This document shows positions 24,601-44,809 of a stretch of 64,000 nt of DNA, one piece after another. A program made the translations under genes and the position numbers. Numbering within the stretch: position 1 is the stretch's first letter; each line of letters starts with the position of its first letter. This stretch comes from Candidatus Pacearchaeota archaeon (lineage in GTDB: Archaea > Nanobdellota > Nanobdellia > Pacearchaeales > GW2011-AR1), in contig JAGVXF010000007.1 of NCBI GenBank assembly GCA_018303925.1, positions 56,775 to 120,774 on the forward strand, written 5' to 3'. The notes under the pieces were generated by a model that saw only the letters and a list, made by a program, of their open reading frames with translations, was not told the DNA's origin and did no database searches.

Positions 24601-27600
24601 ATGAAAAAAAATTTAACATTAATTAGTTTAATGTTAGGTGTTATGATTGTTTTGATGGTTGGAGCAGTTAGTGCTGTGACTTATGGTCCAATAGGTTCCG
24701 ATTATTCATTGTGTACACACGATGGAGCATCCGATTGGATTTGTACTTCCGAAGTTCACGTTAACGACTCTTCTTATGCAAATATGGATGAAGAAGAAGA
24801 GGTTCAGGGTAGATGGAATGCAGTAATTCCTACAAACGCGGTTGTGACAAGTGTTAAAGTATATGTTGAAGGTATGGAAACTGACCCAAATGTGGAAGCA
24901 AACATTCAATTATGGAGTACAGATACTCAGGAATCTTTGACAGACTATCAAGCTTTTTCACACAACAACTGGCAGACTAAAACATTCCAAGATTCTGATT
25001 TGACTGATTATGTTCAGTCAAAAGTTTCTGCAGGGCAGCCTATAAAATTGGAATTAGATATAGAAGGTGAAAATGACGATGAGAATCACAATGAGATTCT
25101 TATTGATTATATCCATCTTAAAATTACTTATGAAATTCCAGAATGTCCTTTTGAACCACAAGATGGAAGAACAATAGTCCATTTTAGTCCTAGTGATAAA
25201 ATATTATCCTCGGGAAGTTCTGCTGATGCTCAAACTGATAATGAATCGGTTGACTTGGCTGCAGGAAAATATGGGGTTTCTCTTTACTCTTGGGATTATG
25301 GTGTAAACAGGGCAACTCAGAGTCAGCCAAATGAAGAATATTTTGTATTCTTCTATGATTCCTCTGGGAATCTTATAGCTCAATCAAGCGATTCTACGGA
25401 TTTGGCAGACAATGTTATTTTCGCGGATTGGGAAGGACAGGTTGATACAAATTTGGTTTTGTCAGGGGCAGTGGAAGATGTTCAAGGTTTCCATGCGGTT
25501 TATCCTGATGGATCAAGTCCAAACAGCTTAGTTGCTGAATGTGCGGCTTTTGATTTTATAGAAGAACCATGTAGTTTGGAAGTAACTAATCCTGAAGAAG
25601 GAGATTGGTTTGACAACGAGTCTGTTCCAATTAATTGGACTCTTAGTGAAGGTTGTCAATCTATTGTTCATTCATCACTTTACTATTACAATTCTGTAAA
25701 TGGAGAGTGTAATACCCAAGGTCCTTGGAATGAGATAGCAATTCAAGTCTCATCTGCAAATACTGTTGTGAACCCTCCTTTTGAACATGGTTATTTGTGG
25801 GATAAACCTTCAGAAAGTGGGCAATACTGTGTCTATGTAGAAACTCATTCATCGGGTGTAAAAGGATATTCAGAAGTTTTCAATGTTGATCATGCAAAAC
25901 CCTATGTAAATTTAAGTGTGGGAAGTCCTCAAACAGGAACATGTACTGAAGCTGACGGAGAGATTTGTTGGGTTAAACCGAACACTCCTATAACTTTGAC
26001 TTGTCAGGATAACAATCCTAATGAGCCTTGGCAGTCTGGTCCAGATGAAATCTGGTACAGTATAAATGAGGGTCCAGTACAACTTTACACTGGTGCGTTT
26101 AGTTTCCAAACGGATTCTGAACATGACCTAGAATATTGGTGCTTTGATAAAGTGGACAAAGAATCTGAACATAAGTTCAAAGATTTCTTTGTGAACTCTG
26201 AATCTCCAACAATAACAAAAACTGTTGGAGAGCCAAAGGTTAACGCTTCAAGTGAGGAATTTGACTGGTATGTAAATACTGGCACAAAGATTTGCTTGTC
26301 TGCAACTCAAGGAAATCCTACGCATCCAACTCCTGGAGGAGTTGTAATTGATTGTGGGTACACTTATTCCTTAGATAATACAAATTGGGATAAAATACAA
26401 CACGTATCTTTTGATGAAAACGGATGTTTTAGTTATCTTGAAGATTCTTGGCATGAACTTAGTTGTACAGCAACTGATGCTTTAGGAAACACAGCTTTCC
26501 TTTCAGAGAAAGACATTGTGGATTCACAAGGTCCAACGACAACGTGGGATCATGAAGGGCCATACTATTCTTCTGAAAATGGAAAGTGGGTTGACGGTAT
26601 TTCAAATATAACTTTGAGTGCAACAGATCCAGATTCACATCCAGTAGGGGTTGACAAAATTTACTACAGATACACTGTAGTCAATGATGACTATTGTTAT
26701 GGAAAACTCGAAGGTTTTGAAGAACCCGAAAGGTGGAACCAGGATTGGACAGTTTATACTGAACCATTTGGACTTCCAGAATCATGTCATGTGATTGAAT
26801 ATTACTCTAATGATTTGTTGGGTAATAGTGAAGGAATTCATCATGAATTTATCTTTTCAGATCACACTGCTCCTGTTTTGACTAAACTAGTTGGAGAACC
26901 AAGTACTCCTAAGAATGAAAATCCTCTTGAGAACTGGTACGAAAACGAAGGTCAAAAAATTGAGTGGGCAGTTACAATGGACACCCCAATTGAGATAAGT
27001 TGCGAGGATTCAAGTCCTCACCCTTCCGGAATTGGAAATACTCAAGGAAGTGGAATTTATTGGAGGGTAGTTCTAGATGGGGAATATAATTCTTCATCTG
27101 CACAATGGCAGAACTCAAGTACAGACCATGTAACAATATGGTTTAAAGAGCAATCTGAACACCTACTTGAATTTTACTGTGTTGATAATGTTGGAAAGAA
27201 ATCTGAAACAGATTCAGAACTTTTCAAAGTCATAGGAAGTTCATTTGACTTGATAATTGGAGATAAATGGGACTTAATTTCAGTTCCATTCAATTTGTTG
27301 AGTAATGATATAGATGAAGTTTTCGGGAATAATTCAGACATTACAGGCATATGGGGTTACGACCCTTCAACAGGATGGCATTTGTATGCGCCTGGTGTTA
27401 CCGAAGATGATTTGACAACAATTGAACCCGGACACGGTTATTGGATAAAAACTGACAGCGAAACTACTGTTTTAATAGGGGGTAGTTTATTTAGCCCTCA
27501 AAGTGTTCCTGCTGCAGTTGAACTTCAGAATGGTTGGAATTTAATAGGTCACTACGGAACTTCAAACAAGAATTCGTGGTGTAGCCTTTTCTCATTAGTA

Positions 27601-27774
27601 GATACTTCAGTTGGTTTTCCAAGATGGAGTTCCTTATGGGGATACGATTCACCTTCACAAGATTTCGTTCCATTAAGCGCCTATGACAATACAAACCCAG
27701 GAAGAGGTTATTGGGTTGAAATGGATGTGAATGACACATATGTTCCGTCTTCAATTTGCTGGGGACTTAATTAA
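24601..27774 (+). CDS. Giant secreted Cys-rich surface protein (1057 aa)
   Basis: Signal peptide (MLGVMIVLMVGAVSA). Many paired Cys and numerous N-x-S/T sequons. SD-like aaggagg 16 nt upstream. Shares an approximately 100-aa domain with the 28849 ORF. Confidence 0.7.
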   Translation: MKKNLTLISLMLGVMIVLMVGAVSAVTYGPIGSDYSLCTHDGASDWICTSEVHVNDSSYANMDEEEEVQGRWNAVIPTNAVVTSVKVYVEGMETDPNVEANIQLWSTDTQESLTDYQAFSHNNWQTKTFQDSDLTDYVQSKVSAGQPIKLELDIEGENDDENHNEILIDYIHLKITYEIPECPFEPQDGRTIVHFSPSDKILSSGSSADAQTDNESVDLAAGKYGVSLYSWDYGVNRATQSQPNEEYFVFFYDSSGNLIAQSSDSTDLADNVIFADWEGQVDTNLVLSGAVEDVQGFHAVYPDGSSPNSLVAECAAFDFIEEPCSLEVTNPEEGDWFDNESVPINWTLSEGCQSIVHSSLYYYNSVNGECNTQGPWNEIAIQVSSANTVVNPPFEHGYLWDKPSESGQYCVYVETHSSGVKGYSEVFNVDHAKPYVNLSVGSPQTGTCTEADGEICWVKPNTPITLTCQDNNPNEPWQSGPDEIWYSINEGPVQLYTGAFSFQTDSEHDLEYWCFDKVDKESEHKFKDFFVNSESPTITKTVGEPKVNASSEEFDWYVNTGTKICLSATQGNPTHPTPGGVVIDCGYTYSLDNTNWDKIQHVSFDENGCFSYLEDSWHELSCTATDALGNTAFLSEKDIVDSQGPTTTWDHEGPYYSSENGKWVDGISNITLSATDPDSHPVGVDKIYYRYTVVNDDYCYGKLEGFEEPERWNQDWTVYTEPFGLPESCHVIEYYSNDLLGNSEGIHHEFIFSDHTAPVLTKLVGEPSTPKNENPLENWYENEGQKIEWAVTMDTPIEISCEDSSPHPSGIGNTQGSGIYWRVVLDGEYNSSSAQWQNSSTDHVTIWFKEQSEHLLEFYCVDNVGKKSETDSELFKVIGSSFDLIIGDKWDLISVPFNLLSNDIDEVFGNNSDITGIWGYDPSTGWHLYAPGVTEDDLTTIEPGHGYWIKTDSETTVLIGGSLFSPQSVPAAVELQNGWNLIGHYGTSNKNSWCSLFSLVDTSVGFPRWSSLWGYDSPSQDFVPLSAYDNTNPGRGYWVEMDVNDTYVPSSICWGLN

Positions 27775-27927
27775 AACAATTTTTTATTTTTTTTATTTTT
27801 CTTTTTATTTTTTTATTGAGGGACGGGAGTCTTTTAAAATACAAAAATTGTGGGGATGTGAGTAGTGACAAAAAATAACCCTATTCACTATAATAATACT
27901 TTTAAACTAATTACTTGTCGCTTTTTT

Positions 27928-28752
27928 ATGAGAAATGAAATTTTGGTAGTATTTTTGCTTCTAATTTCAGTTGGTTTTATCAGTTTTATTTCAGCTGTTC
28001 CTCCAGAACCAATGGCTTTTTATGGAAATGTGAGTATGAATGGAACTTTAATTCCAAATGGATATTACTTAACTGCAAAAATTAATGAGATAGTCAGTGG
28101 GCAGTGTGAAGTCATTAATGGAATATATGGGATGGGCGAAAACACTTGCATAGTTCAGAGTTATTCCTCAAATAAAGTTAAATTTTATTTAGGGAATAAT
28201 TTTTTGGGAGAATATCCTTTTCAGGGAAAAGAAATTGTAAATTTAAATTTTCAAACAGATTCCCTCCCTTCTAATTTTACTCCTCTTTCAAATGGAGTTT
28301 GTGAACCTTCAAAGGGAGAGTGTTCTTACAATTTGTTGGATTGCGGAAATTCAATAACAACAGTTTGTGTCGGAAATGGAATTTGTGATTCAAATATTGG
28401 AGAGACATGCTCAAATGCCCCTAATGATTGTGGGGCTTGTCAAACAACAACCCCTCCCGGTGGAGGAGGCGGTGGAGGAGGCGGAGGCTCTGGTGGAGGA
28501 GGTTCATCTTCAGGAGTAACAACTCCGGTGGATGTTCAGTTTTTAGGGGATAATTCTCAAAATCCAGGTTCCAGTGAGGGGGAGAATAATAATCAACTTT
28601 CAAACGAAACCTCTCAAAAAGAAAAAATTTTTGGAATTACAGGATTAGCAATTGGTGAATTTGCAGGAACTACCCTAGGAATAATCACAATTATTATTTT
28701 AGTATTGGTCCTTCTTGGAATTCTTTACTATTTTTTCTTTGGAAAAAAATAA
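27928..28752 (+). CDS. Membrane-anchored Cys-rich surface protein with poly-Gly linker
   Basis: Probable start at MRNEILVVFLLL (signal peptide). Cys-rich module CGNGICDSNIGETCSNAPNDCGAC. G10SG4S3 linker. C-terminal TM anchor IITIIILVLVLLGILYYFFF. Confidence 0.6.
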   Translation: MRNEILVVFLLLISVGFISFISAVPPEPMAFYGNVSMNGTLIPNGYYLTAKINEIVSGQCEVINGIYGMGENTCIVQSYSSNKVKFYLGNNFLGEYPFQGKEIVNLNFQTDSLPSNFTPLSNGVCEPSKGECSYNLLDCGNSITTVCVGNGICDSNIGETCSNAPNDCGACQTTTPPGGGGGGGGGGSGGGGSSSGVTTPVDVQFLGDNSQNPGSSEGENNNQLSNETSQKEKIFGITGLAIGEFAGTTLGIITIIILVLVLLGILYYFFFGKK

Positions 28753-28848
28753 CCTGATATTTCTTTTTTTTTGGGTGGAAATTTAAAGTATATTTTTTAG
28801 GATAATAATCTTTTTAAGTTGCAGTCATTACAGAATTAATATTAGAAA

Positions 28849-30141
28849 ATGAAAAATAAGATAATTTTGGCCTTTGGAATTTTAATTTTGGGAGTTCTTT
28901 TAATGGGATTGGGAAGTGCGGCAGATATGTGCCCTTTAAATTTAGGAGATTACGACCAAATTGTGAATATTGGAGGTGGAAAGTTAAGGTCGGATTTAAC
29001 TATTTTAGATGCAAAATCTTCAATGGTTCCACTTGTGCTTAACCCGGGAGATTATTCCATAACTCTTGTTGCGAGAGATGAATCCTTAAACCGAAAAGAT
29101 GATTCTCAGCCAAATGAGCAATATCAGATTTCATTTCTAAAAGAAGGAAGTCAGGTTGCTTTAACTTCTTCAACTTCTGATCTTGAAGATAATGTTCTTT
29201 TTTCAGAAGTGATTGAAGTTGTTGAAACTCGTCTTTCTCTTCCAGAGGGGGTGGATTCTATTCAGGCAATCCATTCAGAGTATAATTCTGTTCCGACTGA
29301 TTCTCCAAATAGTTTGTATGCAGTTTGTGTTGGAATAAATAAAGTTGAGAAATTCTGCGATTATGATGCGGGGGTAAATTATGCCTACAGTTTTTCAAAT
29401 GGAACAGGAATAGCAATTGGACATGAAACGGGTTCAAACTGGATTGAAGGGTACGTGAATTTATCTAAAAATGAAACTTATGACATTAAACTTTCTCTTA
29501 AAAATTTTGGGGCAAGTGCAATAAGCAACCTTTATATCCTTTTTGAAATTGATGGGTCTTATTTAAATTCATTTTATAAGAATTTGGCGGTGAGTTCAAG
29601 TGCTGTTTACCAAAAATTTGAACTAAATGCTTCATCGCTTTCATGCGGAAGCCATATAATTTCTGCTGAACTTTCTAAAGAGGGTCAAATTGATTGTAAT
29701 CTTGAAAACAATTATGCAGAAAGAGAAATTTATGTTCAATGCAATGGAATTGAGCCCCCAAACCCAACTTGCGGAGACAATGTCTGTGGTTTGGAAGAGA
29801 GTTGTTTAACCTGCTTTGAGGATTGCGGATTTTGTGATACAGAAGATGACGATAATGATGGGAATACCAATCATTCGTTTATTTCTTTTTCTTACGGATG
29901 TAGCCCTGAATGGCAATGTTCTTCCTGGGGAGATTGCATTAACAGAATTCAAACAAGAATGTGCAATGACAAAAACAATTGCAATTATACCTACGGAAAA
30001 CCTTTGGAAACTTCAGGGTGTGTTGAAGGAATAACCTCTCTTAATTCGCAGATTCAGGATGGAGGTATAAGTCTATGGATTTTAATAGGAATAATTTTCC
30101 TTGTGATACTTTTGGTAATTTTGATTCTTGTTTTTTTGTGA
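28849..30141 (+). CDS. Surface protein with signal peptide and C-terminal TM anchor, paralogous in part to the 24601 ORF
   Basis: Signal peptide. The domain SQPNEQY...TSDLEDNVLF...SPNSLYAVC is homologous to the 24601 ORF. Cys module CGDNVCGLEESCLTCFEDCGFC. C-terminal TM. Confidence 0.65.
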   Translation: MKNKIILAFGILILGVLLMGLGSAADMCPLNLGDYDQIVNIGGGKLRSDLTILDAKSSMVPLVLNPGDYSITLVARDESLNRKDDSQPNEQYQISFLKEGSQVALTSSTSDLEDNVLFSEVIEVVETRLSLPEGVDSIQAIHSEYNSVPTDSPNSLYAVCVGINKVEKFCDYDAGVNYAYSFSNGTGIAIGHETGSNWIEGYVNLSKNETYDIKLSLKNFGASAISNLYILFEIDGSYLNSFYKNLAVSSSAVYQKFELNASSLSCGSHIISAELSKEGQIDCNLENNYAEREIYVQCNGIEPPNPTCGDNVCGLEESCLTCFEDCGFCDTEDDDNDGNTNHSFISFSYGCSPEWQCSSWGDCINRIQTRMCNDKNNCNYTYGKPLETSGCVEGITSLNSQIQDGGISLWILIGIIFLVILLVILILVFL

Positions 30142-31824: not shown

Positions 31825-32607
31825 ATGATAAATGAAATAATCAGACCAATTGTCAAAGTGGGAAACAGTTCAGGGGTGGTTTTGCCTAAGAACTGGTACG
31901 GGGGAAAAGCAAAGATTGAACTTGTTGAGAAACCGCTCAATATAAAAAAAGATCTTCTTGAAATTTTAGAAGGATATCTTGCAAAAGTTTTGGGAGTTTA
32001 TCTTTCCGGAAGTTATGCGAGAGGGGAGGAAAAAGAAAGTTCGGATGTGGATGTGTTAGTTATAACTTCAGATTTAAATAAAGTGATAAAAAAAGGAAAA
32101 TATTATATAATTTTAATTTCAAAAAAGATTTTAGAAAACACCCTTAAAAAAAACGTTTTGCCTCTTCTCCCCATGGTTAAAGAAGCAAAAACTATTTTGA
32201 ATGAAAGCCTGATTCGAGAATATAAAGGAACCCTTTTAACAAAAAGGAATTTGAAGTTCCATCTTGAAACCACAAAGTCTGCTCTTGAAATTAACAAGTC
32301 TTTAGTTTTACTGGATAAAGAAAAGAACTTGAATTCTTCGGATGGGGTTTCTTATTCTCTTGTTCTTAGATTAAGAGGAGTTTACATTGTTGATTGCCTG
32401 ATTAAAAATAAGATGTGGTCAACAAAAGAATTAAAGAATCTTATAAAAAAAGTATCTGGTTCTTCAGAAGCATATTCCGGGTACCTGCGTGTTAAAAATG
32501 ATGAGAAGAATCAGGAGAACCTGAAAACTGAAGAAGCCGAAAAAATCATAAATTATGTTTCCAAGAAAATCAATGAACAGGAAAAATGGCTAAGAAAAAT
32601 AAAATAG
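31825..32607 (+). CDS. MazE/AbrB-like swapped-hairpin domain fused to a minimal nucleotidyltransferase (MntA-like), paralog 1
   Basis: N-terminal VKVGNSSGVVLPKNW (MazE/SpoVT-AbrB-like). NTase motif GSYARGEEKESSDVDVLV (GS...D.D). C-terminal helical domain. About 35-40% identical to the 34880 ORF. Confidence 0.6.
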   Translation: MINEIIRPIVKVGNSSGVVLPKNWYGGKAKIELVEKPLNIKKDLLEILEGYLAKVLGVYLSGSYARGEEKESSDVDVLVITSDLNKVIKKGKYYIILISKKILENTLKKNVLPLLPMVKEAKTILNESLIREYKGTLLTKRNLKFHLETTKSALEINKSLVLLDKEKNLNSSDGVSYSLVLRLRGVYIVDCLIKNKMWSTKELKNLIKKVSGSSEAYSGYLRVKNDEKNQENLKTEEAEKIINYVSKKINEQEKWLRKIK

Positions 32608-34679: not shown

Positions 34680-34880
34680 ATGGGCAAAGACATCAAACAT
34701 ATGAAGAAACTGCGCAAAAAAAGATTAAAATCGTTTAGAAAGCAAGTGGAAAAACACGAGGAAAAAATTGAAAATGAGAAGGGAAGGTTTGATACAACCA
34801 AAGATTACTGGGAAAAAGAAATAGATGAAAAATTTTTAAAAAAGATCGAAGAAGATGAAAATTATCTGGAGGAAAAATAA
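34680..34880 (+). CDS. Small basic protein (66 aa), paralog of the 32586 ORF
   Basis: Shares the conserved KSFRK.VEKHEEKIEN..G.....YWEKEI core with the 32586..32765 ORF. Its stop codon overlaps the ATG of the downstream NTase gene. Confidence 0.4.
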   Translation: MGKDIKHMKKLRKKRLKSFRKQVEKHEEKIENEKGRFDTTKDYWEKEIDEKFLKKIEEDENYLEEK

Positions 34881-35653
34881 TGGAAATACAAATTAAAAAG
34901 GCTGTCAAATCGGGGAATTCTTCAGCTGTAATTCTTCCAAAATCATGGTTGAATAAAGAAGTCCGAGTTGAACTTGTTGAAAAGTCCCCCGAAAAAATTC
35001 TTTCCGAAGTTCTGAATATTGTTGGAAATTATCTTGATTTAAAAAAGATAATAGGAGTTTATCTTGTGGGAAGTTATGCCCGTGGAGAAGAAGATGAGGG
35101 AAGTGACATTGATATTCTGGTTCTAACTGATGATTTAGACAGAAAGATGATTTCCAAAGGAGAGTATAATGTTTTAATCTTGTCTTCAAATCTATTAAAA
35201 CAAAAATTAGATAGGGATCTTCTCCCTATTGGGCCAATGATTCGAGAAGCGAAGCCTCTTTTGAATCTTAGCTATCTTGATTTAATAAAAGTAGAGGTTA
35301 CAAAAAAGAATGTTTCTTGGTACCTTCAAACTACAAAAGACAAATTAAGAATCATAAAAAGTATCCTTTCCAGAACAAAACTTAAATTTCTCGATAGTAG
35401 AATTGCTTATACTTTGGTTTTGAGAATAAGGACTCTTTATTTAATTAATAAGATGATAAAAAATGAAAAACCGTCAAAAAAGGAACTTATAGAAATAATA
35501 AAAAGCACTTCCGGAGGAGAAAATGCTTACAGAGGATATTTGGATGTAAAAAATAATTCAAAGAAAAAAAGAGAAATCAGCTCAGATGAAGCTCGGGGGC
35601 TGTATGATTATTTGAAGAATCTTTTATCTGATATTAAGATGCAATTAAACTGA
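34880..35653 (+). CDS. MazE/AbrB-like domain fused to a minimal nucleotidyltransferase (MntA-like), paralog 2
   Basis: N-terminal VKSGNSSAVILPKSW. NTase motif GSYARGEEDEGSDIDILV. Same architecture as the 31825 ORF. Confidence 0.6.
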   Translation: MEIQIKKAVKSGNSSAVILPKSWLNKEVRVELVEKSPEKILSEVLNIVGNYLDLKKIIGVYLVGSYARGEEDEGSDIDILVLTDDLDRKMISKGEYNVLILSSNLLKQKLDRDLLPIGPMIREAKPLLNLSYLDLIKVEVTKKNVSWYLQTTKDKLRIIKSILSRTKLKFLDSRIAYTLVLRIRTLYLINKMIKNEKPSKKELIEIIKSTSGGENAYRGYLDVKNNSKKKREISSDEARGLYDYLKNLLSDIKMQLN

Positions 35654-35937
35654 TTTTATATGGGCACAAATTTTATAAATATGAAATAATCGGAGGATCT
35701 GCAAAGAATATTTCTGAAAATCTAAAGAAAAAATATTACAAAATTGAATGGAGAGAAATTGTGAGGGCAAGAGATTTAATTGTCCATAGTTCTTTTAAAA
35801 TTGATTCCGATGCAATTTTTGGGATTATGGAAAAAGATTTTCCGATTTTAAAAGATCAAATTGATGAAATTTTGGAGAGCGGATGTGAATTCAAAAAAAC
35901 AAAAATATTTATAAAACACTTTAACCTAATTTTTAAA
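35638..35937 (+). pseudogene. HEPN (HepT/DUF86-type) C-terminal remnant without a start codon
   Basis: The open frame reads ...KYEIIGGSAKNISENLKKKYYKIEWREIVRARDLIVHSSFKIDSDAIFGIMEKDFPILKDQI..., which matches the HepT C-terminal half (IIGEA.KNLSE..K..YP.I.W..I.G.RN.LVH.Y..ID...VW). The roughly 40 aa of N-terminal HepT sequence is missing, and there is no ATG, GTG or TTG at a sensible position. It overlaps the NTase stop and ends at the start of the giant gene. Confidence 0.45.
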
Positions 35938-38900
35938 TGATAAAAGAGGGAAAGGTAATCTTTAGTTTATTATTTTTGCTAATCTTTGTTGTTGTGATTT
36001 TTTCAAGTTCATTTGTTTTAGGAGAATTAACATGTGCTGGGGGGACATTGACGGGAACTTACGCAGGATGTGATGGAGATTATGAGAATACCCAAACAGG
36101 AAGTTGCTGGTATAGACCCCCAATTTACTACCCCAATGGAACTGCGATGTACAATTTCAAGAGTTTGGGTCTTCGGGCAGAAGTTTATTGTTGGAATTTT
36201 GAAACTCCCGCTTTGTGTGGTTCCAATGACGAATATTGTAAATGGTATCATGGGCAAAATTCTTGTTATGGTCTGAGTCAGGAAAATTGCGGGTCAATAT
36301 ATTATCCTACTTGTTCTCCCCAATATTCAGATTATACCTGCTCTTGTCCTTTAGGGCAGCACAGTGATTTGGCAAGTACCCCTTTTGCATCATGCAGTGG
36401 AACTTTTGTGGAAAATTATACATCTAGTTATTGTTATTGGAGGGAGGGTGTAAAGGCTAATGCCATAAGTCAAGGTGAGTATTGCAGTTATTCTGATGCC
36501 GGTTCTTGCAGAGGTGCCGATGAATTCTGTGAATGGAATATCTTATCTTACTCAGCTACTTTTTCATGTATTGGATTTAATGAGCAAACATGTATGTTTA
36601 CTTCAGGATGCGTAGCGTCTTATGATACCAATTATCAATGTGTTTCAAATACATGCTCAGATACCGATGGGGGTTATGTTCCCGAAATACAAGGAACAGT
36701 TAGCGCTCAAAGTGGGGATACTGGGACAGATTTTTGTGAGGATGGTTATTTTTTAACTGAGTATTATTGTTCGAATAGTGTCGGATTCTCAGGACAGGAA
36801 ACCTGTAACTTTGGTTGTTTAAATGGAGAGTGCAAGCCTGTTCCTTGCCCAAGTTCTCAAGAAGGGGTAAATGGAGGAAACCTTGGATGTATTGATAAAA
36901 TAATTTCTAATTCTCATATTATTTATTCAACTTCTTCATGTACTAGTTTAAGTCAAATTTGTTCTGCATGTAATTCGGGTTATTATCCTTCTTATGATTA
37001 CGCTACAGAATCTTATATTTGTCACGCTATCCCTGATACTTGCTCTGACAGCGACGGGATGAATTATAATACCCGAGGGACCGTGAATGCAAGTAGGGGA
37101 TATTCAGGAACTGATTATTGCGCTGATTCCGGGGGAGACCCAGGGGCTCCAACTTCAGAAGGGGATATTTTATGGGAGTTTGGATGTTCAGGAACGACCG
37201 GAGTTAAAAATATTTATGGGGATTGCCAGTATGGATGTTCAGAGGGAAAGTGTAATCCTACTCCTCCCCTCCCAGATTGTCCTGTTACCCAAACTGGAAC
37301 TATATATGTAGGATGTGTACAGGATCAAGATATAAATTCAAATCTAATTAACTATGCCCATTCAACAAATGATTTATGTAGTGATGAATATGTGTGTTTT
37401 CAATGTAATTCAGGATACATCTGGGACGGAAATAATTGTGTTCTTAAATGTCCAAGTCCACAACCAGGAACGAGCGGGGGAAATTTGGGATGTTTAGAAA
37501 ATCAGGTTTTATATTCTTACGTTTTGTATCCCACCTCTTCATGTACTAGTTTAAGTCAAATTTGTTCTGCATGTAATTCTGGTTATTATCCTTCTTATGA
37601 TCACGCTACAGAGTCTTATATTTGTGTTCCTGTGTCTATTTCATGTACGGATACAGATTTAGGTCAAGCTTATCCTGAATATTTCAAAGGGTCTCTAACT
37701 GCAACGACGGGGATAACAAATGGTATGGATAATTGTGCAGATTCAACACATTTAAATGAATATTTTTGTGATGCATCAAACCGAGGTTCACTTGATTCCA
37801 ATCATCTTTGCCCAAAAAACTATGGTTGTAATAGTGGCGCATGCAGAGACTTTTATTTTGTTGGCACATCAGATGGTAATAAAATTTTATCTTTAGGTCA
37901 GGGAACAACTCTTCCTAAGACGATTAAATTTGTTGGTTCAGCTTATTCAGGGTCAGGAGGAGGGTCTTTTTCACTTTATGAAAGGGCTTGGACAAATGAA
38001 TTCTGGGGATGGTGTGATATTTGTGCAGCAGATACTCTTGTTGGGACTTATTCAGGAAATACTCAGGATTTTAACGGCGATGGGGTTAATGATTATTTAA
38101 GTGACAGTTGGACTTTAAATTCAAATGTTTTAAATTCTTTAGAATCTGATGGGCCGTATGACAAGTATGAATTTTATTTTAAAGTTGGTTCTTATCAAAG
38201 TTCTGGTTTGTTGGTTGATCCAAGTCTTGACACCTGCCACGACGAAATTCAAAATGGTGGCGAAGAAGGTATTGATTGTGGTCCTGTGTGTGGAAATGAA
38301 TGTCTTTTTTGTCAGGACAGCGATGGAGGGCAAATTTATGATGTTCAAGGAAGGATAATTGCAAACAATGGGTTACATACAAGCGGGACAGATTTTTGTG
38401 ATGATTCAACTCATTTAAATGAATATTATTGTAGTGCTGCTAATGCAGGTTCTTTAGAGATACGCCACTATTGTGGGGCTGGAAATGCATGTTCAAATGG
38501 AGTTTGCACAGGAGAGCAAATTCCTAATTCAATTGTTTATTGGGCTTATAAAACCTATCAGGAGGCACCCGGATATTTAGAGGTATTAAACTCAAGTATT
38601 GGTTCTTTTGGAAGAAGATTAGTTTTAACTTATCCAGAACCTTCTCTTAGTTCATTTCAGATATTTAAAGAAAGCAATGCAATTTTTATTCCCGATACAT
38701 TGGTAAGAGAAGAGTATGGTTCATCATTTTCTAATTTTTATTTTTATGATTGGATTCCTTCTTATGCGGATTTTATGAATGCAGGAACTCCGACTTTTAG
38801 CAATAATACATATAGATTTTACTTTAAGGTGGACGATGGAGATAGTCGTTTAACAAGCAATTATTGGGATGTTTATGTAATTGGAGAGGTTCCTTCATGT

Positions 38901-39545
38901 ACTGATGGAGCGCAGAATGGGGATGAGGAAGGAGTTGACTGTGGAGGAAGCTGTCCAAACGAATGTGAACCAGATATAGATCAGTGCCTTGGAATAGATT
39001 TTTGTATGGATTATACCAGCGAGGCGACATGTAATTTAGATAATTGTAGTGTTGCACAATATAGTGGTTATGCTCCTTCCGGTACAACTCCTTTGTGTAT
39101 TTGGTATTCGGTAGTTCCCGAGGAATGTATCTTTGGCTATTCAGGAAGTAATTATGGGGTTTGTATGCACCACGATAGCCCGACAAATGACAGTTGTGAG
39201 GATGACGGTTTTTTAACTCATATATGGACTAATGAATATTCCTGGGATTTAGATAATGCTTTTTCAACCCAGCAGGCATGTGAGGTTTATACATCTGAGT
39301 GTTCAGGCAATTGTGTCTTAAGGGGAAGTTCATGGCATTGTGATCCCAATGGAGAAGAAACAACGTGCTTAAATGGAGAAACTACTGCAACAATTCCATG
39401 CCCTGCTCAAATACAACTTGGATTTTTTGATTGGCAGAATGTGGTAGTTGCTATTCTTGTAATTTTCCTTTTGTATTTAATTCTTTTGAAGAATAAGAAG
39501 ACACAAACAGAAAAATCCTCGAAAGGCAAAAAGAGAAAAAAATAG
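35937..39545 (+). CDS. Giant secreted Cys-rich modular surface protein (1202 aa) with C-terminal TM anchor and basic tail
   Basis: Signal peptide. Four copies of an approximately 60-aa module C.D[ST]DG..GT....G.D.C.D...L.EY[YF]C...C..GC..G[AK]C. Two NG-EEG-DCGG-C-NEC modules. An approximately 200-aa tandem duplication. C-terminal TM AILVIFLLYLILL followed by KKTQTEKSSKGKKRKK. Confidence 0.7.
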   Translation: MIKEGKVIFSLLFLLIFVVVIFSSSFVLGELTCAGGTLTGTYAGCDGDYENTQTGSCWYRPPIYYPNGTAMYNFKSLGLRAEVYCWNFETPALCGSNDEYCKWYHGQNSCYGLSQENCGSIYYPTCSPQYSDYTCSCPLGQHSDLASTPFASCSGTFVENYTSSYCYWREGVKANAISQGEYCSYSDAGSCRGADEFCEWNILSYSATFSCIGFNEQTCMFTSGCVASYDTNYQCVSNTCSDTDGGYVPEIQGTVSAQSGDTGTDFCEDGYFLTEYYCSNSVGFSGQETCNFGCLNGECKPVPCPSSQEGVNGGNLGCIDKIISNSHIIYSTSSCTSLSQICSACNSGYYPSYDYATESYICHAIPDTCSDSDGMNYNTRGTVNASRGYSGTDYCADSGGDPGAPTSEGDILWEFGCSGTTGVKNIYGDCQYGCSEGKCNPTPPLPDCPVTQTGTIYVGCVQDQDINSNLINYAHSTNDLCSDEYVCFQCNSGYIWDGNNCVLKCPSPQPGTSGGNLGCLENQVLYSYVLYPTSSCTSLSQICSACNSGYYPSYDHATESYICVPVSISCTDTDLGQAYPEYFKGSLTATTGITNGMDNCADSTHLNEYFCDASNRGSLDSNHLCPKNYGCNSGACRDFYFVGTSDGNKILSLGQGTTLPKTIKFVGSAYSGSGGGSFSLYERAWTNEFWGWCDICAADTLVGTYSGNTQDFNGDGVNDYLSDSWTLNSNVLNSLESDGPYDKYEFYFKVGSYQSSGLLVDPSLDTCHDEIQNGGEEGIDCGPVCGNECLFCQDSDGGQIYDVQGRIIANNGLHTSGTDFCDDSTHLNEYYCSAANAGSLEIRHYCGAGNACSNGVCTGEQIPNSIVYWAYKTYQEAPGYLEVLNSSIGSFGRRLVLTYPEPSLSSFQIFKESNAIFIPDTLVREEYGSSFSNFYFYDWIPSYADFMNAGTPTFSNNTYRFYFKVDDGDSRLTSNYWDVYVIGEVPSCTDGAQNGDEEGVDCGGSCPNECEPDIDQCLGIDFCMDYTSEATCNLDNCSVAQYSGYAPSGTTPLCIWYSVVPEECIFGYSGSNYGVCMHHDSPTNDSCEDDGFLTHIWTNEYSWDLDNAFSTQQACEVYTSECSGNCVLRGSSWHCDPNGEETTCLNGETTATIPCPAQIQLGFFDWQNVVVAILVIFLLYLILLKNKKTQTEKSSKGKKRKK
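36933..37023 (+). repeat. Internal direct repeat copy A (about 91 nt) within the giant gene
   Basis: tcttcatgtactagtttaagtcaaatttgttctgcatgtaattcgggttattatccttcttatgattacgctacagaatcttatatttgt is repeated 603 nt downstream with 3 mismatches. Confidence 0.85.
37536..37626 (+). repeat. Internal direct repeat copy B (about 91 nt) within the giant gene
   Basis: Near-identical to 36933..37023 (g/t, t/c and a/g differences). It encodes SSCTSLSQICSACNSGYYPSYD(Y/H)ATESYIC in both copies. Confidence 0.85.
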
Positions 39546-39548: not shown

Positions 39549-39995
39549 TTAATTATTATTTATAAATTTTATAATTTCTTCCTTGAATTTTTCAAAATCC
39601 TGCAACTTTTCTGACAAGATTTCATATATGATTTCGTTGTCGGTTTCCCCATATTTATGAACGAGAATATTTCTAAATCCTTTCATTCCCATCAATATTT
39701 CTTTTAATTCTTTTGAAATTACTCCTTTCTTGTAAGTTTTTTCTATTAGATCCTCTTCTCCCGAGGGGAGTCCCAATTTAAGCCCGGAAGTGATTATGTT
39801 TAGGATGTCAATAATTGTTTCTATAGATATTTGCAATAATCTTTCGCATGCCCTTTTATCTTTTATGGAATTTTTGTAAATTTCTAAATTTTCAGGAATT
39901 ATCTCTTCAAGTTCGGAAAGATATTTATTCAATTCATCTATCTTTGATAAAATCCTTTTATTATCTAATTTTGACATTTTCGAGGTAACTATCAT
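39549..39995 (-). CDS. HEPN-domain toxin-like protein (HepT/DUF86 family)
   Basis: C-terminal GFRNILVHKYGETDNEIIYEIL carries the R-x4-6-H HEPN motif (RNILVH). It lies downstream of, and overlaps, the MNT gene. Confidence 0.75.
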   Translation of the reverse strand: MIVTSKMSKLDNKRILSKIDELNKYLSELEEIIPENLEIYKNSIKDKRACERLLQISIETIIDILNIITSGLKLGLPSGEEDLIEKTYKKGVISKELKEILMGMKGFRNILVHKYGETDNEIIYEILSEKLQDFEKFKEEIIKFINNN

Positions 39996-40341
39996 AAATT
40001 TTTTTGTAGAATCCGAATTCTTTTATTGTTTCAAAAGCAATCTCGTACATTTTATCCTCATCTTTTATTAAAATAAATTTTCCTTCTTTTAATATTCTTA
40101 TCTTAATATAAACGGGCAATTGCTCAAATATATGAATATCTAATTTTGAATCGAATTTTGAAGCATATTTTAATTTTATTTTTGACATTTCTTTATTGCT
40201 TTTCTTTTCTTTTAAAACCAGCGCAATGTCAATATCCCGGTAATCTTCTTTTCTTGCATATGATCCAAACAAAGCAACAGCTAAAACTTCTTTGTCTTTT
40301 TCTGCTTCTTTAATAATCTTGGAGGTAATTTCTTTCATCAA
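39961..40341 (-). CDS. Minimal nucleotidyltransferase (MntA-like antitoxin)
   Basis: LFGSYARKEDYRDIDIAL (GS...D.D). 126 aa. Overlaps the downstream HEPN gene by 35 nt. Confidence 0.8.
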   Translation of the reverse strand: MMKEITSKIIKEAEKDKEVLAVALFGSYARKEDYRDIDIALVLKEKKSNKEMSKIKLKYASKFDSKLDIHIFEQLPVYIKIRILKEGKFILIKDEDKMYEIAFETIKEFGFYKKIYDSYLENVKIR

Positions 40342-40498: not shown

Positions 40499-41992
40499 AT
40501 GGGAAGGAAATTAAGGAATTTGGTAGCAGCCGTTGGGATTACTTTAGCGACGCTTTCTCCAATGAAATATGCAAATGCACAGGTTGACAGCTTAAATACC
40601 CCTCTTTCTTTAGAGAGAGCCGGAAATTTTTTCTCTCCATCAGGGGTTAATGAACTTGTTGGAAAACCATGGAAATATGGGGATGGAGATGTCAATCATG
40701 ATGGAAGAACGGATAGTTTTGATTTAGCAGTTATAGATTCAGTTTCAAATGATGAAGGGGATATAGATGGGGACAGCCTTTCTTCATCTGCAAATGACAA
40801 GCAAATATTGTCTGATTATTTGAATGGAAATATCCCTTATTTACCGGGGGACTGGGCAAATTTAAACAAGGAAGAAAAAACTTCGTGGATTAAAAAGATG
40901 ATAAAAATTCAAAATTCTCTTCCTAATACAGATTATAGTCAATGGGTTTGCAGAAATTTTATAACCCAAATGGAACTTGAATTTTACGGTTCTTCAAATA
41001 TCGATGGATTTATACAATATTATCATGATAATGGAGAACCACAGGGGGGGGAATATTATTTGGGAGAAAAAAATGCAAGGTTTGGTTTGCCTGTTGTTTA
41101 TGCTGGCACAATAAACACCTCAGGGGAATCTCATTCTGTTAATGGGGTTCTTGTTGGTAAAGACCCTTTGAATTTTAATGATTGGTATTTTTTTGGATAC
41201 GAAAATGATAATCAGGTTGTTCCTGGCTCCCAGCAAATGGATTCAAATAGCCCCGTTTCAATTGGATTGAATGGATATTTTAAAGGACCTTTTGGACCTG
41301 TTTTTAGTCCTCTTTCCGATTTGATACAATTTGAATTGCAGGGCGGAGAAGTTGTAAATATAATTCATAAAAATTATGTCACACTTCACAATCCCGAGAA
41401 AATAAAAGTTCATCTTGGAAAACTTGAAAAAATAGTAATTGATAATAATTCTTTTCCAGATGTGACAAATTTTACCCCCGAATTTTTGGAGAGTCAGGGA
41501 TATAAAGCAATACCGGATACTTCTTCGGAGAATGCTTTTGGAATTCCGGTTAAATTGACTCATGAAGATTCAGATACTACAAATGTTTCATACAGACATT
41601 TTCAGTTTTTAAGAAAGTTTGTTGGTTCAGTTTATTCAGGGGGAATAACAAAGTCAGATTCTTCCCCACAAATAATTGAGGTTAATAATTTTACACCCGT
41701 TGAACCAGAGGATTTTTATTTGCCGGATGAATTCAAGATTTACCAGAATTATCCTAATCCATTCAACCCAACGACAAATGTGAAGTATGAGACAAACAGA
41801 TATGGAGATGTAAAATTGGAAGTTTACAATAATTTGGGGCAGAAAGTTTATGAAAAAACAGATAAAGGAGTTTATCCCGGGGTTCATGAATTTAAGGATA
41901 TAGATATGTCAAAATATGCTTCGGGAATGTATCTTTTTAGAATTTATGAGGGGGAGAAATTCAAATCTATAAAAGGTGTTTTACAAAAATAA
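40499..41992 (+). CDS. Secreted protein with N-terminal dockerin-like repeats and C-terminal T9SS (Por_Secre_tail)-like sorting domain
   Basis: Signal peptide ending ANAQ. Dockerin type-I-like pair GDVNHDGRTDSFDLAVIDSV and DIDGDSLSSSANDKQILSDYLNG. C-terminal KIYQNYPNPFNPTTNVKYE...VYNNLGQKVYE...GVHEF...ASGMYLFRI...KGVLQK matches the bacterial T9SS C-terminal domain consensus. Confidence 0.6.
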   Translation: MGRKLRNLVAAVGITLATLSPMKYANAQVDSLNTPLSLERAGNFFSPSGVNELVGKPWKYGDGDVNHDGRTDSFDLAVIDSVSNDEGDIDGDSLSSSANDKQILSDYLNGNIPYLPGDWANLNKEEKTSWIKKMIKIQNSLPNTDYSQWVCRNFITQMELEFYGSSNIDGFIQYYHDNGEPQGGEYYLGEKNARFGLPVVYAGTINTSGESHSVNGVLVGKDPLNFNDWYFFGYENDNQVVPGSQQMDSNSPVSIGLNGYFKGPFGPVFSPLSDLIQFELQGGEVVNIIHKNYVTLHNPEKIKVHLGKLEKIVIDNNSFPDVTNFTPEFLESQGYKAIPDTSSENAFGIPVKLTHEDSDTTNVSYRHFQFLRKFVGSVYSGGITKSDSSPQIIEVNNFTPVEPEDFYLPDEFKIYQNYPNPFNPTTNVKYETNRYGDVKLEVYNNLGQKVYEKTDKGVYPGVHEFKDIDMSKYASGMYLFRIYEGEKFKSIKGVLQK

Positions 41993-42160: not shown

Positions 42161-44809
42161 ATGAAAGAAAAAAGGGGAGGTAGTTATTTTTTAGCTGTAA
42201 TTCTATTTATCTTTTTAATTTCATATGTATCCGCATCTTATGAGTTTTCAAATCATTCAATTGAAACTCATTATTCAAAAGGCTCAACCATCTCAGGAAA
42301 TATTAATATTTCTTTTGAGAACGAATCTTTGAATTCTTTTTTTGAAGATTCATTTGATAACAAGGTTTACCTTAAAGATTTACTCGGAGGTTCGAATTCA
42401 TATTTATACAACTGTACTTCCAAGAAATGTTCTTCATCATATGTTCTTTCAAACCCATCAAGTTCCAAAACTTTTTCTCTTCCAAAAGGTGAAGAAAAGA
42501 CCTTTGGATTTGTGATTCAGGGAAATATTCAGAACATAAATTCGGTTTCTTTTTTGCTTTCAAGCACTGCTCCCGCGTCAGATTTAAATCAGATAAAAAT
42601 CGATATTTTAGATGATGGAATTATTGATGCAGGAAACTCCAAAGCCGGAACTGCTTCGCAGAATGTGAATTATGGTTGTTATAATGCAAGCGAGGGGCCA
42701 AACGAGATAAACCTTATAACTACTCCTTTTTGCCAGAATATAACTGTATATGAATCTCCGGGTCTGCTTCTTGGAGGATTTTTTAAAAAAGTCTCAGACG
42801 GGTCAAATGGAATTGGATTGAATATTTACAATAAAAAAGGAGTTTCTCTTGGATCATGCAGAATTTTAAATTCAAGTGTCTCTTTTTCAGGAGGGAACTA
42901 TTTTTGCAGTGTGAATGTCTCTATACCTGAAACTAATAATTATTATATCTGTGCTTATGCAGAACAGGGAGAGGCCAAATACAAAACTCTTGGATATTCT
43001 TCTTTGTCATCAGGAAAAAATTGCGGTTTTTTAGGTTATTTAAGTTTTCCCCCCCAAAATGAAACTGCGGCATACAAGATAGGTCTGACCCCCTTAAAAT
43101 TTTCTTCTCCAAGTGCTCTTAATATCTCAAATGTCCTTCCAACTGGAGATTTAATCTCTTTACTCATCGGAGAATATCTCTCCAAAACTTATCCTGAAGG
43201 CTGCCTTGAGGGATGCAAGATCCCTTTAAAATTAGTTTCTTTTGAAGACCAGTCAATCACTTTAAACAGCCTGAAAGTCAGTTATGATGCAGAATCGCTT
43301 CCAGGTCTGGAGATTTCAACTTTTTATGATTTTGACATTCAAGACTCAAAAGTCAGTTCTCCAATGCAGTTACTTCCTCTTGACGGATTTTTTTATGTTT
43401 CTCAGTTAGGGTGGGATGAAAATTACACCCTCAAATTTAAAGGAGAAAAACTTTTTAGTGAAAAGATTTTCCTTGAAAACTTCTCCATTCAGATTTATCC
43501 CTTAAGATATGCTGTTAATTTTTCTGTTCCTTTTTTAATATTAAATTCTCAGGATGCGGGTTCACAGTATTATGAAATTGATTTTGGAGACAATTCCATT
43601 TCCACAACTTCGTCAAAATCTTTTTTGCACAAATATATTTCAGTTGGGAATTTTAGTTTAAAGGTTTCGTCTTATATAAACGGCACCAAATTAACAAAAA
43701 CCTTCAAAATAGAAATTCTTCCTTCAAAAAACTTTATTGACAATGAAATTAAAATCCAGAGGAGTTCCATTTCTTTTTTTAACTCACAGATATCTTTTAT
43801 GAATTCTTTTGAAAAGTCAGAAATAAACAGAATTTTTGAACTTGAGAACCTGACTACCACACTTAATTCAATTGAATCTTCTGTTTCTTTGGCGTCTTCG
43901 GATTCGGATTATGAGAAAATTTTCGGGAATTTAATCAGGCTTAATATTCCAAAGTCAATTACTCGCACAGTCTCCCAGGAAATCCCTTTTATTATTGAGG
44001 TAAATGAAATAAATCTGGATATCCTTAAGGATATAACCGAAGAAGACTATTCCCCTGCCGATGAAAGTGCTGATTATATTTCTTTTTGGGATTATGAAAA
44101 TCTTAATTCAAAAATCTCCTCTAACAATATTTTAGTTGAGACAGCAGACGGTTCAAAAGTTCCTCTTAATTTTTATGAGATTTCTATCTCTCCTAAAAAA
44201 AATATTAACCAGTCTTATTATTTTATTTTTCCAAATTCGGGGAATGCCAATTTTGAAGAAAATTCCGGAGTTGAGGCCGGGAGCGGGTATTCCTATTTTG
44301 AACTTGGAAACATTGAAAAAACTATAAGGTTTTCAACCGGGGAAGATTTTGGGTCGTATCATCCTTTTTTTATTGCCCCACAGAATGTTGAAGTTTTCGC
44401 AGGAGGGGACATTTCCGAACCCATGAATAATAACTGGATATTGATTTTAGTAATTCTGGGGGTTATTCTAATAGGGTTTTTAACTTATTACATTATGCAC
44501 AGGTGGTATGCTGTTAAGTATGAAAATTATCTTTTCCCTGATAAAAACCACCTTTACAATGCAATTTTTTATATAAATAATTCATTAAAGAATGGAATGG
44601 AAGAGAGTGAAATAAGAAAGAGTCTGCTTGATGCTGGATGGAAAAATGAGCAGGTTGTTTACTTAATAAAAAAGCATTCAGGAAAGAATCCGGGGATGTT
44701 TAATCTGTTTGGTTCTTCAAGTGAAAAGGGATCCTCAAAAATAAATTCACCTCCAAAACCTGGAAGAAATGTGAATTATAAGGATTCAAATACAAAATTT
44801 AATAAATAA
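42161..44809 (+). CDS. Type-I membrane surface glycoprotein with PKD-like domain and cytoplasmic tail (882 aa)
   Basis: Signal peptide. Dense N-x-S/T sequons. PKD-like YYEIDFGDNSIS...HKYISVGNFSLKVS. TM WILILVILGVILIGFLTYYI followed by an approximately 110-aa cytoplasmic segment. Confidence 0.6.
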   Translation: MKEKRGGSYFLAVILFIFLISYVSASYEFSNHSIETHYSKGSTISGNINISFENESLNSFFEDSFDNKVYLKDLLGGSNSYLYNCTSKKCSSSYVLSNPSSSKTFSLPKGEEKTFGFVIQGNIQNINSVSFLLSSTAPASDLNQIKIDILDDGIIDAGNSKAGTASQNVNYGCYNASEGPNEINLITTPFCQNITVYESPGLLLGGFFKKVSDGSNGIGLNIYNKKGVSLGSCRILNSSVSFSGGNYFCSVNVSIPETNNYYICAYAEQGEAKYKTLGYSSLSSGKNCGFLGYLSFPPQNETAAYKIGLTPLKFSSPSALNISNVLPTGDLISLLIGEYLSKTYPEGCLEGCKIPLKLVSFEDQSITLNSLKVSYDAESLPGLEISTFYDFDIQDSKVSSPMQLLPLDGFFYVSQLGWDENYTLKFKGEKLFSEKIFLENFSIQIYPLRYAVNFSVPFLILNSQDAGSQYYEIDFGDNSISTTSSKSFLHKYISVGNFSLKVSSYINGTKLTKTFKIEILPSKNFIDNEIKIQRSSISFFNSQISFMNSFEKSEINRIFELENLTTTLNSIESSVSLASSDSDYEKIFGNLIRLNIPKSITRTVSQEIPFIIEVNEINLDILKDITEEDYSPADESADYISFWDYENLNSKISSNNILVETADGSKVPLNFYEISISPKKNINQSYYFIFPNSGNANFEENSGVEAGSGYSYFELGNIEKTIRFSTGEDFGSYHPFFIAPQNVEVFAGGDISEPMNNNWILILVILGVILIGFLTYYIMHRWYAVKYENYLFPDKNHLYNAIFYINNSLKNGMEESEIRKSLLDAGWKNEQVVYLIKKHSGKNPGMFNLFGSSSEKGSSKINSPPKPGRNVNYKDSNTKFNK

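Follow-up and report, generated by a model that had tools for sequence, protein, structure and literature searches.

Bacterial and parasite surface proteins undergo intragenic gene conversion between repeat modules, with concerted evolution of tandem domains, and the surface proteins of eukaryotes are assembled from small "beads" such as the EGF-like, Sushi/CCP, TSR and LDL-receptor class A modules. DPANN archaea and CPR bacteria need contact with host cells, and most of their surface proteins carry no annotation. We analyzed a stretch of 64,000 nucleotides (the window) from a Pacearchaeota (DPANN) archaeon whose source is aquifer groundwater, largely anoxic, and focused on a gene that encodes a cysteine-rich surface protein with features reminiscent of both kinds of system. 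The account that we consider probable is that the product is a mosaic, disulfide-rich type I anchored surface protein that contains an unnamed domain, module A, and in which a second domain, module B, later underwent a short gene conversion.

The open reading frame (35937..39545; this and all features below lie on the + strand) encodes a type I membrane-anchored surface protein of 1202 amino acids with 86 cysteines. The adjoining genes are archaeal and encode archease, RtcB, an archaeal CCA-adding enzyme and TrmB. A protein of identical length, MBS3084472.1, is named "hypothetical protein [Candidatus Pacearchaeota archaeon]", and a search for full-length homologues returned only the protein itself and one relative (P0002) that is 33% identical. 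By hydropathy, the sole hydrophobic segments are residues 1–30 and about 1161–1188. The first corresponds to a signal or anchor segment (aa 1–29, 35937..36023), with Kyte–Doolittle windows above 1.6 at aa 1–18 plus 19 and a similar N terminus in P0002. The second is a transmembrane helix followed by the basic tail ...KGKKRKK (39417..39542), also conserved in P0002, as is the cysteine-rich stalk region that precedes it (38967..39410) in a BLASTP alignment. Between these ends the ectodomain consists of recurring modules and reads, from its N-terminal Cys-rich region onward, A1, B1, A2, B′, B2, A3, X1, Q1, A4, X2, Q2 and Cys-rich stalk, with the transmembrane segment following. The X1 domain (aa 638–766, 37848..38234) is uncharacterized and ends in YEFYFKV; it can be aligned to X2 (aa 859–987, 38511..38897) as well as to the X region of P0002, and a Pfam search gave no match to it. 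Each X domain is followed by a short Q motif, namely Q1 (aa 767–789, 38235..38303), which reads C.D.IQNGGEEGIDCG..C..C, and Q2 (aa 988–1010, 38898..38966), which reads CTDGAQNGDEEGVDCGGSCPNEC; the two are identical at 15 of 23 positions (z = 10). A profile search with the X domain and Q motif mostly returned matches to the Q motif, which is found in tandem in unrelated proteins too, and no annotation was gained from it.

Module A occurs four times, as A1 (aa 239–300, 36651..36836; CSDTDGG...EYYC...GEC), A2 (aa 368–440, 37038..37256), A3 (aa 569–637, 37641..37847) and A4 (aa 791–858, 38307..38510). All were identified with a profile that drew on 865 instances from other proteins and on none from the window, at E-values of 1.2e-20, 2.5e-17, 7.2e-17 and 3.2e-21, respectively, and that profile detects no additional copy anywhere in the gene, nor in any reading frame across the window. 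Against this profile, each of the four carries the six cysteines together with D3, D5, D26 and E36 in register. Two copies depart from the consensus: in A2 the alignment shows an 11-residue insertion, and W-E-F-G-C takes the place of EYYC, whereas in A3 DGG is replaced by DLG. An earlier note on this DNA had described four tandem modules of the form C.D[ST]DG...EY[YF]C...G.C in the 1202-residue protein. The count of four is exact by profile and the quoted motifs can be read in the sequence as given; the modules are not in tandem, since 67, 128 and 153 residues, filled by other modules, intervene between successive copies. P0002 has one A module.

Module A comprises about 60–65 residues with the consensus CTDSDGGxNYYxKGT...D.C.....L.EYYC...........C..GC.NGAC and a cysteine spacing of C-x24-30-C-x10-C-x11-C-x3-C-x4-C. 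The six cysteines, D3, D5, G14, D26 and E36 are near-invariant, each occurring in over 91% of 874 instances. All six cysteines are kept in 855 of these, and the number of cysteines is even in 867 of the 874, as expected if all of them are paired in disulfides; we infer that three disulfides hold the module together, which presupposes that disulfides can form outside the cell in groundwater that is largely anoxic. A word-indexed search with a 117-sequence module profile yielded 14 candidates only, and the family was therefore counted by an exhaustive profile search of 1.84 billion cluster representatives. This search returned 4162 proteins at E ≤ 1e-3; the number falls to 1163 at E ≤ 1e-10 and to 104 at E ≤ 1e-30, and a single protein can hold as many as 15 copies. 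Among the best 150 of the 4162, the median is six copies joined by six-residue linkers, and 122 have an N-terminal hydrophobic, signal-like segment. Pfam places a Kazal domain in 22 of 84 module A proteins, always N-terminal to the array, and the other domains that co-occur with the module are Dockerin_1, CARDB, PKD, S_layer_C, PEGA, Laminin_G_3 and PG_binding_1. When ten canonical instances were scanned against species-representative genomes, the best 80 loci were labeled DPANN (53), unclassified archaea (11), CPR/Patescibacteria (5) and other (11); no members were found on viral contigs.

Module A is a large family that has neither a Pfam or NCBIfam model nor a relative of solved structure. 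At the gathering threshold, Pfam-A (2025 copy) gave no match over the module in the window protein, in seven top members or in 84 further members, and ten isolated A modules had no match even at E ≤ 10. NCBIfam release 20.0 assigned zero families at its curated cutoff to the window protein, P0002 and five canonical members, and no relative by sequence or fold was found in the PDB. In the literature on cysteine-rich surface proteins of DPANN archaea and on extracellular cysteine in Woese- and Pacearchaeota we found no account of the module; the nearest trace is that "chitin-binding" and "Kazal" domains are mentioned, indirectly, for DPANN archaea. The suggestion that the module is unnamed is thus borne out in the two model collections, in the PDB and in this literature. 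One could still take module A for a very divergent version of the CBM14 (peritrophin-A) chitin-binding fold, that is, a glycan-binding lectin module, with Avr4 (6BN0) and Der p 23 (4ZCE) as the examples for comparison. We consider this unlikely. In sequence, an hhalign comparison of the 117-sequence module A alignment with a four-sequence CBM14 alignment from PDB chains gave a probability of 0.15% and an E-value of 0.39. The family, of more than 4000 clusters, can now be defined and given a consensus; its fold is predicted with confidence, and its typical architectures are described, among them one of signal peptide, Kazal domain and array. The data suffice to seed a family model and to pick targets for structure and binding studies.

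The AF2 model of module A (pLDDT 96.4, pTM 0.82) has five strands and predicts, with high confidence, an autonomous all-β fold. The closest parallels are the EGF-like, Sushi/CCP, TSR and LDL-receptor class A modules. What module A shares with them is a size of about 40–65 residues, six conserved cysteines and a setting in proteins that are secreted or anchored in the membrane, where short linkers join the copies into tandem arrays and other modules are interspersed. Unlike them, module A has no sequence match to those Pfam families, differs in its cysteine spacing, has a five-strand predicted fold without a PDB match and is found in DPANN archaea and on CPR-labeled contigs, not in eukaryotes. 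By analogy with the EGF, Sushi and TSR beads, module A may serve as a rigid, protease-resistant extracellular spacer, as a ligand-binding (adhesion) unit or as both. Its acidic residues recall the Ca2+-binding LDL-A and cbEGF modules, and the conserved acidic cluster is a putative binder of a cation or another ligand. The loop is not of the calcium-binding DxDxDG type, in which three Asp side chains coordinate Ca2+, as C-T-D-S-D-G-G contains two Asp and gives the motif DxDGG. A broader and more tentative possibility is that module A represents a superfamily of extracellular domains that is new, perhaps in its fold as well: a six-cysteine, perhaps cation-dependent β-module that would be a hallmark of ultra-small episymbiotic prokaryotes, abundant in DPANN archaea and shared with CPR/Patescibacteria, presumably by horizontal transfer. 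Its arrays could then act as stalks or adhesive structures on which Kazal inhibitors, dockerins and other heads are displayed at the symbiont–host interface, and characterizing module A, if that is so, would allow the surface by which DPANN and CPR organisms attach to be approached through sequence.

The second repeated domain, module B, lies between the A modules. B1 (aa 304–362, 36846..37022; repeat family D1) has six cysteines and the pattern CP..GGNLGC...CTSLSQICSACNSGYYPSYDYATESYIC, and it is identical to B2 (aa 505–563, 37449..37625) at 43 of 59 positions (z = 34.6). Between them lies B′ (aa 448–501, 37278..37439), a diverged copy (z = 8.0–8.4 against B1 and B2) with an EGF-like hairpin, CFQCNSGY. 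The Pfam cEGF model matches B′ only, at E = 5.5e-4 and 20.2 bits, below its gathering threshold of 26.6 bits, and the AF2 model of B1, made from three sequences, is of low confidence (pLDDT 60.6). From this sub-threshold match and low-confidence model, module B appears to be weakly EGF-like. It shares C-x2-C-N-S-G-Y...C with the CxxC repeats of Giardia VSPs and furin-like proteins and with cEGF, a pattern typical of EGF or furin-like hairpins; its N-terminal half (CP..GGNLGC...) is without counterpart in any of these.

The module order arose by two old tandem duplications, one of B–A units with a period of 603 nt and one of A–X–Q units with a period of 663 nt. In the former, the alignment of residues 304–504 with residues 505–705 spans 128 columns, 64 of them identical (z = 31.6). 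This duplication of about 200 residues pairs B1–A2 with B2–A3, not A1 with A2. In the latter, A3–X1–Q1 and A4–X2–Q2 are identical at 73 of 207 positions (z = 31). Embedded in the B–A units is a 90-nt tract of 30 codons, present in the C-terminal half of B1 (36933..37022) and again in B2 (37536..37625), with a start-to-start distance of 603 nt (201 aa). The two copies differ at 36977, 36999 and 37010 only; the earlier figure of three differences in 91 nt (36933–37023 and 37536–37626) is right as to near-identity and off by one in length, as the 91st nucleotide adds a fourth mismatch. The near-identical DNA belongs to the B modules and not to the C.D[ST]DG modules. Its exact 44-nt core occurs at these two sites only within the window, with zero occurrences expected by chance, and the window contains no third copy of the tract, B′ being diverged.

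Identity is 97% within the tract and falls abruptly at its edge to 61% in the adjacent 87 nt on the left; given that flanking level, the probability of at least 87 matches in 90 is about 1e-15. Of the 29 residues that are identical between the copies inside the tract, 27 are encoded by the same codon, where 11.7–13.7 would be expected (P from 6e-10 to 2e-8); in the left half of module B the figure is 8 of 14 against 5.5–6.3 expected (P = 0.12–0.23), which is no excess. The tract thus has sharp boundaries and synonymous sites homogenized relative to the flanking paralogous sequence, as in gene conversion. We infer from the contrast in identity and from the codon usage that a short stretch was converted between B1 and B2, within a tandem duplication that is itself old, as seen in a single paralogous pair from one clonal population. 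The old tandem duplication made the B–A units, and a short non-reciprocal recombination, long afterwards, would have homogenized the C-terminal half of B between the two copies. The earlier note had offered very recent duplication or ongoing gene conversion as readings of the repeat, and it is conversion, ongoing or recent, that agrees with the drop in identity at the edge and the codon excess confined to the tract.

If the whole unit of about 200 residues had been duplicated in tandem very recently, the 603-nt period and the alignment of the units over 128 columns at 50% identity would be accounted for, but near-identity should then extend throughout, and the mosaic identity profile contradicts this. 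Beyond the tract the two copies show their age: DNA identity in the left half of B is 61%, with synonymous sites at chance level, and A2 and A3 are identical at only 21 of 64 residues (33%). We therefore regard a recent duplication as highly improbable. Selection could instead have kept the tract, its target being the peptide SSCTSLSQICSACNSGYYPSYD.ATESYIC or an embedded nucleic acid element, and the tract does stop exactly at the last cysteine of module B and span its most structured part (pLDDT of about 70, compared with about 50 for the rest of the B1 model). Selection on the protein fails, however, to explain the 27 of 29 identical codons (P ≤ 2e-8), and for a nucleic acid element the RNA folding of both strands gives no structure signal (z from −0.8 to +0.9). 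The divergence of B′, which leaves no third copy, and the lack of related sequences elsewhere in a scan of JGI metagenomes also count against selection, which we find very doubtful as the cause. The favored explanation, gene conversion, resembles that in bacterial and parasite surface-protein repeats in having a near-identical tract within diverged modules and homogenized synonymous sites. It differs from those systems in that there is a single tract of about 90 nt in two copies only, with no silent-cassette donor locus, invertase or observed variants, and it does not amount to a dedicated system of variation.

Repeats are a well-known weak spot of assembly and the window is a metagenome assembly, so that the repeat or the intervening unit might come from misjoined or collapsed reads. 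Such an artefact is very unlikely, bordering on negligible, because the gene DNA is identical in three independent assemblies (L003, L004 and L005; 0 differences in 3609 nt) and has one SNP in a fourth (L001), all four being colinear across the gene. The k-mers in the contig identifiers, 127 for L003 and 141 for L005, both exceed the 90-nt tract, L004 is an independent scaffold, and the two copies differ at three positions. The same assemblies bear on the proposal of repeat-number variation (phase or antigenic variation), according to which programmed or frequent recombination between the 90-nt copies would delete or duplicate the in-frame 603-bp unit of 201 codons and give rise to size variants. 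In its favor, the copies are directly repeated at a distance of 603 nt, which is divisible by three, and share a 44-nt perfect core; the protein is surface exposed by hydropathy; and the gene conversion itself shows recombination between the two. Against this, among the assembled sequences compared, all 17 contigs that carry the protein encode the same 1202 residues, both partial cluster members are colinear fragments, and the assemblies are identical or differ by one SNP. There are two copies only, the gene contains no simple-sequence tract or other simple or tandem repeat of the kind that marks a contingency locus or phase-variable gene, and a scan of the JGI metagenome collection with the B1–A3 region found two distant loci only and no length variant. 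Repeat-number variation is accordingly quite improbable at this locus, and the assembled sequences give no evidence of copy-number switching driven by the tract. What the tract offers is a small, clean case of concerted evolution between archaeal surface-protein modules, with no variation system indicated.

The protein is also depleted in N-glycosylation sequons, of which there are 7 as compared with 14.1 ± 3.3 expected; a shortage of this kind is atypical among archaeal surface glycoproteins.

The gene at 35937-39545 on the forward strand encodes a protein of 1202 residues with 86 cysteines, deposited at equal length as 'hypothetical protein [Candidatus Pacearchaeota archaeon]' (MBS3084472.1 / AQS31271.1). 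It has just two hydrophobic segments, at residues 1-30 and about 1161-1188, the latter followed by a basic tail (...KGKKRKK), which together predict a type-I anchored layout with an ectodomain of about 1130 residues. From pairwise alignments with shuffling controls and from module alignments, we obtained the order signal, Cys-rich N-region, A1, B1, A2, B', B2, A3, X1, Q1, A4, X2, Q2, Cys-rich stalk and TM, where A is the ~60-residue six-cysteine C.D[ST]DG...EY[YF]C...G.C module, B is another six-cysteine module, X1 and X2 are uncharacterised domains and Q1 and Q2 are short Cys motifs. One tandem duplication relates B1-A2 to B2-A3 (603-nt period, 64/128 identical, z = 31.6) and another A3-X1-Q1 to A4-X2-Q2 (37641-38303 and 38307-38966; 663-nt period, 73/207 identical, z = 31). 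The approximately 200-aa duplication of the earlier note corresponds to the 603-nt period, but it pairs A2 with A3 rather than A1 with A2. The hydrophobic segments and the alignments show the protein to be a membrane-anchored ectodomain built from duplicated modules.

Of 874 full-length instances of module A gathered from other proteins, 865 went into a profile that left out the window protein and P0002, its sole full-length homologue. This independent profile finds exactly four copies, A1 (residues 239-300, E-value 1.2e-20), A2 (368-440, 2.5e-17), A3 (569-637, 7.2e-17) and A4 (791-858, 3.2e-21), with no further copy elsewhere in the gene or in any reading frame of the window; the four modules first quoted from the sequence are thus real. 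They are not strictly tandem, since other modules intervene. The C-terminal half of module B, CSACNSGYYPSYD.ATESYIC, resembles an EGF or furin-type hairpin, the support for an EGF-like B being limited to a sub-threshold cEGF match on B' (E 5.5e-4) and a low-confidence model (pLDDT 60.6). A motif of 22-23 residues, C.DG.QNG.EEG.DCGG.C..C, follows each X domain (38235-38303 and 38898-38966; residues 767-789 and 988-1010); it has no Pfam match in the window protein and is also tandemly arrayed in the unrelated short proteins P0166, P0167 and P0172.

Module A is the more interesting finding: it represents a large, uncurated family of extracellular domains that apparently has no structural match. 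We searched 1.84 billion cluster representatives exhaustively with a profile and obtained 4162 proteins at E<=1e-3, of which 1163 reached E<=1e-10 and 104 reached E<=1e-30, with up to 15 copies per protein. The consensus of the 874 instances is CTDSDGGKNYYVKGTV..G...TDYC.....L.EYYC...........CP.GC.NGAC, in which each of the six cysteines, D3, D5, G14, D26 and E36 occurs in >91% of instances; the cysteine number is even in 867/874, consistent with all cysteines being paired in disulfides. Of the 150 best proteins, 122 have a signal-like hydrophobic N-terminal segment; the median copy number is six and the median linker is six residues, so that a secreted tandem array is the typical context. These features point firmly to a large, secreted, arrayed family, of which the window protein is an atypical, mosaic user. 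As proposed earlier, the module is unnamed: no Pfam-A or NCBIfam model matches it in the window protein, in isolated modules (E<=10) or in 91 other members, and no published description was found in the literature searched. The domains that co-occur with it are all extracellular. Kazal is found in 22/84 family proteins by Pfam, and a motif scan of about 150 top matches identified 25 Kazal proteins (P0012, P0020 and P0035 among them), in all of which the motif is placed after the N-terminus and before the first module A, giving a recurrent architecture of signal peptide, one Kazal-type protease-inhibitor domain and module A array. Dockerin, CARDB, PKD, S-layer outer domain, PEGA, Laminin_G_3 and PG_binding_1 also co-occur. 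Among the ECOD groups unique to DPANN, a 2026 survey (PMC13607799) lists 'chitin-binding domains' and 'Kazal-type protease inhibitors', a remark that may concern module A proteins.

The AlphaFold2 model of module A, from a 117-sequence alignment, is a confident five-stranded, all-beta fold (pLDDT 96.4, pTM 0.82). No solved structure matches it in a Foldseek search of the PDB (best E 0.99, TM <= 0.34), and neither Foldseek against BFVD viral models nor a profile search of PDB sequences gave a match at E <= 0.001. We infer a three-disulfide beta unit that would serve as a rigid, protease-resistant extracellular scaffold and/or binding surface, a role modelled on that of EGF, Sushi, TSR and LDL-A modules. 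The invariant acidic residues hint at a putative cation or ligand site; the loop is DxDGG in place of the canonical DxDxDG. In an episymbiotic DPANN cell, a protein like that of the window is a plausible candidate for contacting a host or substrate surface. We regard module A as a new family of a familiar class of protein building block, meriting a family model and a structure, and not as a new mechanism.

Scanning one genome per species with a strict pattern gave 380 confirmed stretches. By label, the 80 best loci comprise Woesearchaeota (22), Nanoarchaeota / Nanoarchaeia (9), Micrarchaeota, including Bilamarchaeum (7), Pacearchaeota (5), Aenigmatarchaeota (4), Iainarchaeum, Nanohaloarchaea and Altiarchaeota (2 each), unclassified archaea (11), Methanosarcinales (3), CPR / Patescibacteria (5) and other or unclassified bacteria (8). 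The family is concentrated in DPANN archaea, with further members on CPR-labelled contigs and none found on viral contigs. Two CPR occurrences look plausible, with binning error possible: a 102-kb Saccharibacteria contig, where the module A gene adjoins a Xer-type recombinase, and a Paceibacter single-cell contig, where it adjoins GyrB.

It is B1 and B2, rather than any CxDxDG module, that hold the near-identical DNA. The repeat is genuine, with 3 differences over 90 positions (36933-37022 and 37536-37625); the 91-nt length first given includes one extra mismatch. Within the window, its 44-nt exact core is present at these two sites only. Identity is 97% in the tract versus 61% over the adjoining 87 nt upstream in the same module; at the flank rate, 87/90 or more matching positions would have a probability of about 1e-15. 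A recent whole-unit duplication, one of the two origins originally proposed, would not leave such diverged flanks, and A2 and A3 are just 33% identical. We also compared same-codon use at identical residues with the expectation from codon usage. Across the 30 codons of the tract, 27 of 29 identical residues use the same codon, against 11.7 (window) or 13.7 (this gene) expected (P 6e-10 to 2e-8), whereas in the upstream half of module B the count is 8 of 14, against 5.5-6.3 (P 0.12-0.23). Selection on the peptide cannot give an excess of this kind in the tract alone, and RNA structure gives no signal on either strand (z from -0.8 to +0.9). We treat the synonymous-site test as decisive, and the best reading is the other proposed origin, gene conversion, here over a short tract shared by two paralogous modules of old origin. 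Another conversion tract, weaker than the first, may join A3 and A4, where a patch (37733-37769 and 38396-38432) is identical at 33/37 nt, or 89%, and the codon test gives P about 0.005-0.016.

An assembly artefact is very unlikely. The contig derives from metagenomes of aquifer groundwater, and three independent assemblies match the window at all 3609 nt; the contig names of two carry k127 and k141, k-mers that exceed the repeat length and make assembly through it unambiguous, while the third is a scaffold assembled from a different sample. One SNP, at 39286 (T versus G), separates the window gene from the copy in a fourth sample (SAMN03842451); apart from it, the population is clonal across samples. 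Recombination between the copies could, mechanistically, delete 603 bp in frame, but no such size variants occur among the assembled copies compared: the exact protein is found on 17 contigs, and two shorter members of its 90% cluster are colinear fragments, one spanning both repeat copies. With simple-sequence repeats also absent from the gene, the suggested repeat-number, phase or antigenic variation finds no support; a JGI metagenome contig scan contained no close relatives able to reveal variants.

In the neighbourhood of 35937-39545 the genes are of archaeal type (archease, RtcB, archaeal CCA-adding enzyme, TrmB and OapB/C), and the organism, on this and the deposited name a DPANN archaeon, has DNA with a G+C content of about 33%. 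Directly downstream, on the reverse strand, the overlapping ORFs at 39549-39995 and 39961-40341 encode a HepT-like RNase and nucleotidyltransferase (MNT) toxin-antitoxin pair; more MNT-like ORFs lie at 34880-35653 and 31825-32607. P0002 (33% identical) belongs to a Nanoarchaeota-labelled cluster, and its gene too precedes a toxin-antitoxin pair, DUF7557 and ParE-like (2802-3324 of its contig, L002), echoing the arrangement here. Nearby large ORFs (1057, 882, 295 and 430 aa, including 24601-27774, 42161-44809 and 27865-30141, all on the forward strand) have no Pfam match at E<=1e-3, and this region rich in orphan proteins possibly encodes surface proteins. At 40499-41992 (forward strand), a 497-aa protein ends in Por_Secre_tail (E 6.3e-9), a bacterial T9SS-type C-terminal sorting domain unexpected in a DPANN archaeon. 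Finally, a 98-nt tRNA at 5523-5620 on the reverse strand (Rfam, 56.8 bits), absent from the ARAGORN calls, is probably an intron-containing archaeal tRNA.
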